The notes: generated by a model from the sequence alone, not told the origin. 64,000 nt of DNA from Candidatus Sericytochromatia bacterium (GCA_036676985.1 JAKFBU010000023.1:160001-224000), one strand, 5' to 3'. Positions 23,841 through 26,443 are shown, counted from the stretch's first letter. Translations and numbers: made by a program.

Positions 23841-25202
23841 ATGGAAACGCTGCTGCTCAAGAACCTGCTCGTGGCACCCATGACCGGTGCCCCGGACGCC
23901 TACTACGCGGGCGATCTGGCCATCCGGGGCGATCGCCTCGTCGATCCCGCCTCGCTCACGACCCCGCCCGACCGGGTGATCGACATGGCGGGTTGCATCG
24001 CCGTTCCGGGCCTCGTCAACACCCACCACCACCTCTACCAGACGCTCACGCGCGGCCTCAAGGCGGCCCAGAACGCCGAGCTCTTCGAGTGGCTCGTCAC
24101 CCAGTACCCGATCTGGGCAGGGCTCGATGCCGAGATGGTGTACTGGAGCGCGGTCTGCGGCCTCTCGGAGCTCGTGCTCTCGGGCTGCACCACCGTCAGC
24201 GACATGTTCTACGTCTTCCCCGATGGCTCGGACGTCACCCTGGACGCGGTGGTCCGGGCCGCCCGGGACGTGGGCGTACGCATGCACGCGGGCCGTGGAG
24301 CCATGTCGCTCGGCAAGTCCGCGGGCGGCCTGCCGCCCGACTCCGTGGTCCAGGACCCGGACGCCATCATGGCGGACGTGGAGCGCGTGGTCGCCCTGCA
24401 CCACGACCCGCGCGAGGGCGCCATGAGCCGCATCGACCTGATGCCCTGCTCTCCCTTCTCCGTCACCTCCGAGCTCATGAGCCAGATGCGTGACTTCGCG
24501 CGCCGCAACGGCCTGCGCCTGCACACCCACCTGGCCGAGACTCTCGACGAGGAGCGCTTCTGCCTCGAGACCTTCGGCGTGCGTCCCCTCAAGTTGCTCG
24601 AGGACCTGGACTGGCTGGGGCCGGACGTCTACCTCGCCCACGGCATCCACTTCAACGACGAGGAGGTCGCCCTCCTCGGCCGCACCCGCACCGGCATCGC
24701 CCACTGTCCGAGCTCCAACATGCGCCTGGGGTCCGGCATCGCGCGCGTGCTGGAGCTGGTCGAGGCCGGCGCCCCGGTGGGCCTGGCCGTTGACGGCAGC
24801 TCCAGCAACGACGGCGGCTCGCTCATCAACGAGGCGCGCCAGGCCCTCTTGCTCGGCCGCATGCGCTACGGCGTGCGCTACAGCGCCCACGAGGCCCTGC
24901 GCCTCGCGACCCAGGGCGGTGCCCAGGTCCTGGGGCGGCCTGAAATCGGGGCCCTTGTGCCCGGCATGATGGCCGACCTCGCCATCTTCGACCTCTCGGA
25001 CGTGGCCTACGCCGGCATGAGCGTGCACGACCCGGTGGCGTCCCTCACGCTGTGCCAGCCGAACCGGCCGCGTCACGTCTTCGTCAACGGCCGGCAACTG
25101 GTCGCGGACGGACAGCTCCTGACCGTCGACCTCCCGGAGGCCGTCCGGAAGCACAACCAGCTCGCCAAGAAGCTCGTGGAAAAGGCGCCCGTCCGGGCCT
25201 AG
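23841..25202 (+). CDS. 8-oxoguanine deaminase-like amidohydrolase
   Basis: PGLVNTHHHLYQ, PCSPFSV, HTHLAET, AHCPSSN, VDGSSSND. Confidence 0.85.
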   Translation: METLLLKNLLVAPMTGAPDAYYAGDLAIRGDRLVDPASLTTPPDRVIDMAGCIAVPGLVNTHHHLYQTLTRGLKAAQNAELFEWLVTQYPIWAGLDAEMVYWSAVCGLSELVLSGCTTVSDMFYVFPDGSDVTLDAVVRAARDVGVRMHAGRGAMSLGKSAGGLPPDSVVQDPDAIMADVERVVALHHDPREGAMSRIDLMPCSPFSVTSELMSQMRDFARRNGLRLHTHLAETLDEERFCLETFGVRPLKLLEDLDWLGPDVYLAHGIHFNDEEVALLGRTRTGIAHCPSSNMRLGSGIARVLELVEAGAPVGLAVDGSSSNDGGSLINEARQALLLGRMRYGVRYSAHEALRLATQGGAQVLGRPEIGALVPGMMADLAIFDLSDVAYAGMSVHDPVASLTLCQPNRPRHVFVNGRQLVADGQLLTVDLPEAVRKHNQLAKKLVEKAPVRA

Positions 25203-25212
25203 GAGGATCGAG

Positions 25213-25746
25213 ATGCATCGCACCATGGCAGCGGGCCTCGGGCTCGCGAGCATTGCCCTGGTCCAGGTCGCCCATGCGGCGCCCACGGCCAAGGATCTCA
25301 TCGGGCAGGCGGCCCCGGCGTTCACGCTGACGGCAGACGACGACACGCCCGTCACCCTCGCGGATCACCAGGGCAAGCCCGTGGTGCTCGCCTTCTTCCC
25401 GAAGGCCTTCACCCCCGGCTGAGAAGCCGAGATGAAGAGTCTCGGTCGAGATTTGCCCAAGTTCAAGGCCCTCGGCGCCGAGGTGTTCGGTATCAGCTAC
25501 GACGAGCCGGGCACCCAGCACAAGTTCGCACTCCATTGCGCGGCGAACTTTCCGTTTCTGAGCGACGCCGGCGGCAAGGTGGCCGAGCAGTACCGAACGG
25601 CAGGCGGATTCGGTCCGCTGCGGTTCGCCCAGCGGCGGACCTTCATCGTGGATGCCAAGGGTATCGTGCGCTTCGTGCACGACGGGATGCCGGACAACGC
25701 GAAGCTCCTGGCCGACGTGGAGGCGATCGCCGCCCCCAAACGCTAG
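25213..25746 (+). CDS. Exported peroxiredoxin (BCP/PrxQ family) with in-frame UGA, probable selenoprotein
   Basis: ORFs 25213-25422 and 25432-25746 are in the same frame; the joined protein reads FFPKAFTPG-(UGA)-EAE...GISYD...FPFLSD...RRTFIVD. UGA 25420-25422 replaces the peroxidatic Cys. Confidence 0.88.
25437..25454 (+). promoter_or_regulatory. Candidate bacterial SECIS hairpin
   Basis: GAGUCUC-GGUC-GAGAUUU stem-loop; G-initiated apical loop begins 22 nt after the UGA. Confidence 0.55.
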
Positions 25747-26066
25747 GCCTGCAGCTCGTCCTTGAGCGCTTGGAGCCGCTCGGCGAATCGCCGGGCGGCT
25801 TCGGCGTCGACGTCGTCCCGAAAAGCCCGCTCGATCTCGCGCGCGAGGTCCGTGCCGTGCGGAAAGCCGAAGGTCCCGAGCGAGCCCGCGAGCTTGTGCG
25901 CCTCCTGGATGGCGCGCTCGCGCAGGTCGTTCGTCAGGGCGCCCGCCTGCACCGCCACGAGCGCCTCCTCGATGCCCGTGAACCGCGCGAGCACGGTCGG
26001 ACGCATGCGCTGCCAGACGGCCGCGACGGCCGCATCGAGGCTTTCGCGGCGGGCCTCGTCGCTCAT
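25743..26066 (-). CDS. Stand-alone Hpt phosphotransfer protein
   Basis: EAHKLAGSLGTFG motif; ATG 26066 overlaps the regulator stop. Confidence 0.85.
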   Translation of the reverse strand: MSDEARRESLDAAVAAVWQRMRPTVLARFTGIEEALVAVQAGALTNDLRERAIQEAHKLAGSLGTFGFPHGTDLAREIERAFRDDVDAEAARRFAERLQALKDELQA

Positions 26067-26443
26067 GCCCGCCACCCCAGGAGCGTGCACACCTGCTCGG
26101 CCAGGCGCATGGGATCGAAGGGCTTGGCGATGACGCCCAGCACGCCGAGGTCGGCGAACTGTCGGCGATCGCTCGTCTGCACCTTGGCCGTCAGGAGCAC
26201 CACGGGGATCTGGCGGGTGGCCTCGCTCTCCTGCAAGCGCTGGAAGGTCGCCGGGCCGTCCATGTCGGGCATCATGACGTCCAGCAGGATGGCATCCGGC
26301 CGCTCGGTGCGCGCCTTCTCCAGGGCCTCGAGGCCCGAGCTGGCGGGAATGGCCTCGATCTCGCCCATCAGCTCCAGGCTGAGCATGGCGACTTCCCGGA
26401 TGTCGTCCTCGTCGTCGACGATCAGAATGCGCTTGGTCGCCAC
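26063..26443 (-). CDS. Single-domain response regulator (CheY-like)
   Basis: ILIVDDE, LLDVMMPDMDG, LLTAK, KPFDP. Confidence 0.93.
   Translation of the reverse strand: MATKRILIVDDEDDIREVAMLSLELMGEIEAIPASSGLEALEKARTERPDAILLDVMMPDMDGPATFQRLQESEATRQIPVVLLTAKVQTSDRRQFADLGVLGVIAKPFDPMRLAEQVCTLLGWRA

Follow-up and report, generated by a model that had tools for sequence, protein, structure and literature searches.

Is a TGA codon in the middle of a peroxiredoxin-like gene a stop left by mutation, or is it read as selenocysteine (Sec)? This question is raised by a locus in a 64,000-nucleotide stretch of DNA from a Candidatus Sericytochromatia bacterium, which we call the window and in which positions are counted from its first letter. 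The gene is almost certainly a true selenoprotein gene with Sec at the active site of its product. Our joint reading, to which we assign a probability of roughly 0.92, is that the genome's own machinery decodes the Sec codon of an exported BCP/PrxQ-like peroxidase, in which U70 would reduce peroxides and Cys109 would act as the resolving residue. A Sec-containing, probably exported BCP/PrxQ-like peroxiredoxin had been proposed in the initial annotation of the window, which was made from the sequence alone. The Sec/Cys column of the homologues, the Sec machinery, the selection on the downstream part, and contigs of independent origin all agree with that proposal.

Gene structure and genomic context

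Under translation table 11, two open reading frames (ORFs) were found at 25213–25422 (69 amino acids) and 25432–25746 (104 amino acids), which are in a common frame and are interrupted only by the TGA at 25420–25422. With this codon read as Sec, the coding sequence extends over 25213–25746 on the plus strand and consists of 177 codons and a TAG stop; the Sec codon is codon 70, and the context around it in the read-through product is FFPKAFTPG-U-EAE. A Shine-Dalgarno sequence, GGAGGA, is directly readable on the same strand at 25202–25207, 5 nt upstream of the ATG at 25213. The initial annotation had described the two frames parted by one TGA in this motif and had anticipated that pipelines would split the gene. 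The frames lie as described, and the 69- and 104-residue pieces are held as two distinct entries in a public protein collection; gene callers did therefore split the peroxiredoxin gene. The interpretation of the two ORFs as a split gene was considered and rejected.

The TGA did not arise as an artifact of assembly. In three public runs, two of which belong to another study, contigs cover 25420–25422, and no difference is listed there. The contigs spanning the TGA are record 3 of X4 and, from the other study, record 12 of X5 and record 17 of X6; that is, contigs from independent metagenomes keep the codon. At 25412 and 25421, short contigs from other metagenomes matched as far as the active-site codon and continued with unlike sequence that reads as Cys-type sites. 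These short contigs are probably derived from homologues of other organisms and are not variants of this gene.

The genes in the neighborhood encode an amidohydrolase, an Hpt-domain protein, a receiver-domain protein, PepA, an FGGY kinase, an FAD oxidase, and peptidases of families S51 and S8. Within about 8 kb of the peroxiredoxin gene, neither a thioredoxin-like gene nor a DsbD gene was found, and no redox partner adjoins it. No partner gene was conserved across 15 orthologue loci, among which PepA occurred at three, a receiver domain at two (L021 and L022), and the amidohydrolase at none. In the interval 25743–26443 (minus strand), the end of a convergent Hpt-domain gene overlaps the 3′ end of the peroxiredoxin gene by 4 nt, and a single-domain response-regulator receiver gene (26063–26443) is located just upstream of this Hpt-domain gene.

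Family, fold, and active site of the read-through protein

The protein is a BCP/PrxQ/AhpE-like peroxiredoxin with the stop on its peroxidatic residue, and it presumably functions as a peroxidase. The Pfam profile AhpC-TSA (PF00578) matched residues 30–154, spanning the TGA, with an E-value of 1.3e-33 and a score of 116 bits against a gathering cut-off of 26, and positions 1–123 of the 124 profile positions were covered; Pfam Redoxin was also matched. Among NCBIfam models, the best match was the BCP thiol peroxidase model NF006960, with 76.8 bits against an equivalog cut-off of 140. PrxQ scored 59 against 260 bits and PrxU (NF040737) 49.3 against 270, and the weak matches to ResA (52 bits) and DsbE were both far under their cut-offs. 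The NCBIfam matches were all below the curated equivalog cut-offs. Because 76.8 bits is less than 140, the protein is regarded as BCP-like and not as an E. coli-type BCP equivalog, and because 49.3 bits is less than 270, it is not regarded as a PrxU equivalog.

In an alignment with solved chains, residue 70 coincides with the Cys of the AFTxxC motif in Sulfolobus tokodaii PrxQ and Mycobacterium tuberculosis AhpE. The UGA at 25420–25422 is at the peroxidatic position of the signature P63-x3-T67-x2-U70, as had been supposed when the stop was first placed exactly on the peroxidatic Cys of PxxxTxxC, and the homologue column described below agrees with this placement. P63, T67, G69, U/C70, C109 (codon 25537–25539), and R141 (codon 25633–25635) are invariant columns in an alignment of 12 orthologues. 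We take R141 to be the active-site arginine of peroxiredoxins on the basis of general knowledge of the family.

An AF2 model built from the 12-orthologue alignment had a mean pLDDT of 89.2, with low confidence for residues 1–20 and a peroxiredoxin fold from about residue 26. In this model, U70 is the first residue of helix 70–79 and C109 is the last residue of helix 99–109. The top match in a Foldseek search against the PDB was Saccharolobus (Sulfolobus) solfataricus Bcp4 (E = 4e-17; TM-score on the target, 0.88), and the other best matches were AhpE, M. tuberculosis BcpB, and PrxQ enzymes (E = 4e-17 to 1e-13). The protein thus has the three features by which a peroxiredoxin is recognized, namely the PF00578 profile, the PxxxT/SxxC(U) motif with the Arg, and a thioredoxin-type fold in which the first turn of a helix carries the peroxidatic residue.

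Sec/Cys exchange among homologues and selection downstream of the TGA

A six-frame search was performed on 41 genomes, comprising the window's own and 40 relatives, and a match with E ≤ 1e-10 was obtained in 36 of them. The 16 best places (L020–L035, E ≤ 1.5e-38), of which L020 is the window gene, were taken as the orthologous group. At column 70, 11 of these orthologues, which come from different genera and families, have TGA, and the other five have a Cys codon (four TGC and one TGT). TGA is also present in all five members examined of a paralogous clade (L036–L040), which lacks a hydrophobic stretch at the N-terminus.

Named genomes were scanned with the patterns AF[FY]PKAFT and HCA[AT]xFP[FL]LS, and the best 80 of 532 confirmed loci were used. 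Eight of these 80 (L045–L052; seven TGA and one TGC) were orthologue places already in the group and were counted once. The remaining 72 (L053–L124) of the best 80 of 532 are distant homologues with 35–45% identity, with titles naming Acidobacteriota, Anaeromyxobacter and other Myxococcota, and Gammaproteobacteria. At column 70, these 72 homologues have TGA in 39 cases and a Cys codon in 33 (30 TGC and 3 TGT), and the HCA cysteine corresponding to Cys109 is present in none of them, as judged from the printed sequences. Each of the 88 homologues considered (the 16 orthologues and the 72 distant homologues from the best 80 of 532; 50 Sec and 38 Cys forms) has either TGA or a Cys codon in this column, which puts the location of the TGA far outside what chance would produce.

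A quick maximum-likelihood tree of the 88 sequences, calculated with the Sec/Cys column masked, placed the window's class in one clade (SH-aLRT 97) containing 11 Sec and 5 Cys forms. The Sec/Cys label must change at least 10 times on this tree, with at least six changes forced by well-supported branches, and none of 500 shuffles gave a number as low. For codons +1 to +50 past the TGA, the dN/dS values of five pairs were 0.20, 0.23, 0.43, 0.27, and 0.20, which indicates that the part 3′ of the TGA is translated and under purifying selection.

Sec machinery in the genome

The genome assembly (79 contigs, 4.68 Mb, completeness 100, contamination 5.09%) contains selA (C62:18472–19827, 627 bits), selB (C62:16592–18442, 381 bits), selD (C26:280471–281394, L001, 387 bits), and tRNA-Sec (C62:9409–9501, 75 bits against a gathering score of 47; reported by ARAGORN as tRNA-SeC with anticodon TCA). 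All four are above the curated cut-offs, and they are located on contigs (C62 and C26) other than that of the window (C23). The initial annotation had kept another route of UGA recoding in reserve for a genome without sel genes; since this genome has them, no such route needs to be invoked. The genes for tRNA-Sec, SelB, and SelA lie inside about 10 kb (C62:9409–19827), with selB adjoining selA on the same strand. The selD gene has one in-frame TGA, which places U in the SGUASK loop of the N-terminal part; it too encodes a selenoprotein, which an ordinary gene caller would cut short.

Two paralogues in this genome likewise carry TGA in frame at the peroxidatic column, one at C41:21433–21870 (L040; AFYPKDDTPG-U), together with its relatives L036–L039, and the other at C26:23154–23492 (L042; FFPFAFTPV-U). 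Neither L040 nor L042 has an N-terminal hydrophobic stretch. Ordinary gene callers truncate or split not just the window gene but also selD and two or more further peroxiredoxin genes of this genome, and the redox enzymes of the host organisms are therefore under-counted.

Among the genomes of the 11 TGA carriers, selA was found in 10, and the exception (G006) is 81% complete. It was not found in three of the five genomes with Cys forms (G005, G007, which is 100% complete, and G008). The link between the Sec form and selA is not strict, because the other two Cys-form genomes (G023 and G027) have selA. A weak homologue with one TGA was observed at G005:C137:50245–50745, in a genome that is 85% complete and in which selA was not found, and a homologue with two TGAs was observed at G016:C85:8350–8766.

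Hairpins downstream of the UGA

The initial annotation had marked a GAGUCUC-GGUC-GAGAUUU hairpin at 25437–25454 as SECIS-like and had noted an overlapping competitor at 25426–25446; both are present at these places on the plus strand and are called H2 and H1, respectively. Counted from the U of the UGA as 0, H2 has a 7-bp stem and a GGUC loop beginning at +24, and H1 has an 8-bp stem and a GAAGA loop at +14; 10 nt (25437–25446) are common to both. The loop of H1 is closer to the UGA than in the bSECIS model. Taken alone, H2 is weaker than H1 (−5.6 and −11.2 kcal/mol, respectively), and H2 is the hairpin formed in the minimum-energy fold of 63 nt.

H2 forms all seven pairs in the window gene, in an orthologue of the same genus (L022), and in an orthologue of another family (L024). 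The changes among these three comprise one two-sided replacement of A-U by G-C and one-sided changes of the G-U/G-C and C-G/U-G types. At most four of the seven pairs can form at that place in the remaining eight Sec orthologues, and H2 forms in none of the five Cys orthologues. H1 forms 8/8, 8/8, and 6/8 pairs in the window gene, L022, and L024, respectively, and at most 3/8 in the Cys forms. Other Sec subclades have different hairpins farther 3′. Because 8 of the 11 Sec orthologues carry hairpins elsewhere, no one SECIS is common to the whole clade.

The local fold is not exceptional in energy (66 nt; z = −0.92; 38 of 200 shuffles at least as stable), and the support for a hairpin thus comes from comparison with relatives and not from energy. 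A search of 25100–25900 against Rfam in E-value mode gave no match, which says little because Rfam is not known to contain a bacterial SECIS family. For the 88 homologues, the best hairpin was defined by a loop of 3–14 nt, a G in the first two loop positions, and a loop start between +13 and +40, criteria of our own, patterned on the description of the bacterial SECIS; homologues without a qualifying hairpin (one Sec and three Cys forms) were scored as 0. With these criteria, and with kinship ignored, the best hairpins were more stable in the 50 Sec forms than in the 38 Cys forms (means, −13.2 and −8.4 kcal/mol; medians, −13.1 and −7.4 kcal/mol; one-sided Mann-Whitney p = 5e-6). The mean minimum free energies over 60 nt were −19.1 and −15.4, respectively (p = 0.004, relatedness again ignored). 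In the distant Sec forms with clear covarying hairpins, the loops are at +24 to +27, as in H2 (+24).

In the available passages of PMC1088965, the bacterial SECIS is given as a hairpin lying a short way 3′ of the UGA and having a G in its small apical loop. The above results indicate that the window gene probably has a SECIS-type element, for which H2 is the better candidate in terms of position and covariation. The original choice of H2 is strengthened in this respect; it is not proven, H1 being the stronger hairpin when taken alone.

Predicted export and the proposed role of Cys109

The N-terminus of the protein, MHRTMAAGLGLASIALVQVAHA followed by AP, bears out the signal-peptide-like stretch suggested initially. 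By eye, it has a basic n-region, a hydrophobic core of 15 residues, and A-H-A, with no twin arginine and no lipobox cysteine. Substrates of signal peptidase I typically show such an n-h-c layout, with AHA ahead of the mature part. These sequence features suggest that residues 1–22 (25213–25278) are a Sec-type signal peptide and that the protein is exported via the Sec translocon with cleavage after A22. The orthologues and most of the distant homologues (among the best 80 of 532) have a hydrophobic N-terminal segment, which is lacking in the paralogous Sec-peroxiredoxin clade L036–L040. In certain orthologues, this stretch is very short, at about 17–20 residues.

The later Cys to which the initial annotation referred is C109 in LHCAANFPFLSD (25537–25539), a candidate resolving cysteine that is invariant in the 12 aligned orthologues. 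In some PrxQ enzymes, such as that of Xanthomonas campestris, the resolving Cys is located about 36 residues further along, in the helix that follows. U70 and C109 are 39 residues apart, and C109 is one helix past the active-site helix in the AF2 model; we presume that this spacing is comparable with that of the X. campestris type. The oxidized form of the enzyme may therefore be a U70–C109 selenenylsulfide. The genome encodes a CcdA/DsbD-type membrane protein (DsbD_TM; C41:141400–142050, 78 bits), so reducing power could reach the envelope.

We propose the following mechanism. SelA, SelB, SelD, and tRNA-Sec of the genome would decode the UGA at 25420–25422 as selenocysteine, guided by a hairpin just 3′ of it, most likely that at 25437–25454. 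The N-terminal signal peptide would direct export via the Sec translocon to the cell envelope, where the U70 selenolate, held by P63, T67, and R141, would reduce peroxides and be converted to a selenenic acid, which Cys109 would resolve to a selenenylsulfide, and a thiol-disulfide relay of the envelope would then recycle the enzyme.

Alternative explanations

The TGA might be a nonsense mutation on the catalytic Cys codon, the two halves being the decaying remnants of a pseudogene. The two short ORFs under table 11, recorded by gene callers as distinct proteins, and a hairpin energy that is not beyond chance would fit this explanation. However, the retention of TGA in 11 of the 16 orthologues, across different genera and families, as well as in 39 of the 72 distant homologues (among the best 80 of 532), dN/dS values of 0.20–0.43 past the TGA, the retention of every active-site residue, and the full Sec machinery in the genome make it extremely improbable. 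It is also very unlikely that the UGA is read through mainly without Sec, by near-cognate insertion of Cys or Trp, or that termination dominates with minor Sec insertion. Although H1 competes with H2 for the role of SECIS, the TGA forms occur almost only where selA occurs (10 of 11), Cys codons are found in genomes without selA, the 3′ hairpins are stronger in Sec than in Cys forms, and the genome's own selD uses the same UGA device.

Two further explanations accept the Sec residue and concern the location and function of the protein. The protein may not be a soluble exported enzyme but may be held by an uncleaved membrane anchor, or it may be made from a downstream start as a cytoplasmic enzyme. 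The signal peptide was assigned by eye, the hydrophobic N-termini of certain orthologues are only about 17–20 residues long, and no envelope redox partner adjoins the gene. We nevertheless consider this unlikely in view of the strong Shine-Dalgarno sequence 5 nt upstream of the ATG at 25213, the n-h-c and AHA layout typical for signal peptidase I, and the family-wide recurrence of hydrophobic N-termini, from which the paralogous clade L036–L040 is excepted. A TlpA/ResA-type thiol-disulfide (selenol) oxidoreductase, serving protein reduction in the envelope and not peroxide removal, would be compatible with the probable export, the second conserved Cys, and the weak NCBIfam matches to ResA (52 bits) and DsbE. 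It is quite improbable, because the signature is PxxxTxxU with a conserved Arg and not CxxC, the best-matching solved folds are those of peroxiredoxins, and the ResA and DsbE scores are far under the cut-offs. The Sec-containing, exported peroxidase is thus the reading that we prefer.

Comparison with known systems

The available parts of PMC13188914 and PMC9312934 include Sec-peroxiredoxin (Prx, COG1225/PF00578, TxxU) in their lists of established prokaryotic selenoproteins, and an excerpt of PMC5029168 counts 91 such proteins in 78 organisms. Passages of PMC1088965 report 43 Sec-peroxiredoxin genes in the Sargasso Sea, and those of PMC1794560 list three Sec-peroxiredoxins in Anaeromyxobacter dehalogenans. 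The protein of the window shares with this bacterial family the Pfam family, the TxxU motif, the peroxidatic Sec, and the wide occurrence of Cys homologues, whereas its clade differs in host lineage and in the conserved C109, which the distant Sec forms (among the best 80 of 532) lack. Sec-peroxiredoxins of the TxxU type are among the commonest bacterial selenoprotein families, and the window gene is a further member. What is modestly new is a Sec-using class inside the cyanobacterial phylum and the combination of a predicted signal peptide with a conserved second Cys.

PrxU of Eubacterium acidaminophilum is reportedly a Sec-peroxiredoxin verified experimentally by Sohling et al. in 2001. The protein of the window has Sec at the same peroxidatic position, but the PrxU profile (NF040737), which is 233 positions long, aligns with no more than the core of these 177 residues. 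The solved enzymes S. solfataricus Bcp4 (3hjp), M. tuberculosis AhpE (1xxu), S. tokodaii PrxQ (2ywn), and X. campestris PrxQ (5iiz) are alike in fold (TM-scores to these targets, 0.79–0.88), in the PxxxTxxC layout, and in the placement of the catalytic residue where a helix begins. They have Cys and not Sec, with identities of 26–34%. These BCP/PrxQ/AhpE enzymes are generally considered cytoplasmic. The Prx-like thiol:disulfide oxidoreductase selenoproteins share PF00578, the thioredoxin fold, and Sec at the redox site, but they have a thioredoxin-like UxxC or UxxU motif, in contrast to the TxxU motif and the Arg of peroxiredoxins in the protein of the window.

Predicted secreted selenoproteins of other families appear in the accessible portion of PMC2398784. 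The term "signal peptide" is absent from the main text of PMC13188914, PMC1794560, PMC9312934, and PMC2398784; the supplementary tables may list members of the clade. On periplasmic selenoprotein peroxiredoxins bearing a signal peptide, the titles and excerpts retrieved from the literature contained nothing beyond a broad review, and no description of Sec-Cys selenenylsulfide chemistry for an exported bacterial peroxiredoxin was found in the literature. The enzyme family itself is ordinary. The natural Sec/Cys pairs within one orthologous, predicted exported enzyme provide a system for asking what Sec buys.

Host lineage and the Sec trait in the phylum

The host belongs to a non-photosynthetic sister group of cyanobacteria. 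The nearest named records, among the matches listed, are Candidatus Sericytochromatia, Candidatus Tanganyikabacteria, and "Cyanobacteria bacterium" MAGs. PsaA/PsaB was not found in the window's genome or in any of the 47 genomes of its class, and was found in 175 of the 401 genomes of a phylum sample; a search of the same-genus genome G001 likewise gave no match. The supposition in the initial annotation that the host might be a cyanobacterial relative is borne out by these records and by the lack of PsaA/PsaB. In this sample, in which many genomes are incomplete, 23 of the 47 species genomes of the window's class gave a selA match; the remaining 354, which include a large non-photosynthetic family (0 of 170), gave none.

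In the passages available, PMC1794560 reports no detection of the Sec trait in Cyanobacteria, and PMC9312934 states that Cyanobacteria "appeared to lack" it, while an excerpt of PMC9529120 mentions one Sec-containing protein in a "Candidatus Melainabacteria" proteome. A full-text literature search gave nothing pairing Sericytochromatia with selenocysteine or selenoprotein and, as far as titles and the openings of abstracts indicate, no study of the Sec trait in Melainabacteria. It is conceivable, although we regard the idea as tentative and rather doubtful, that Sec decoding is ancient in the phylum, has been retained in the non-photosynthetic class Sericytochromatia alone, and was lost toward the oxygenic cyanobacteria and the other non-photosynthetic group. 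In Sericytochromatia, it would support SelD and three types of peroxiredoxin, including an envelope peroxidase cycling via a Sec70–Cys109 selenenylsulfide.

Two further near records, among the matches listed, are titled as photosynthetic genera or families. In the homologue set, L045, L047, L053, and L096 bear titles of photosynthetic cyanobacteria or Heliobacteriaceae, and the tree groups them with Sericytochromatia-like or Blastocatellia sequences. These photosynthetic and Heliobacteriaceae titles look like mislabels.
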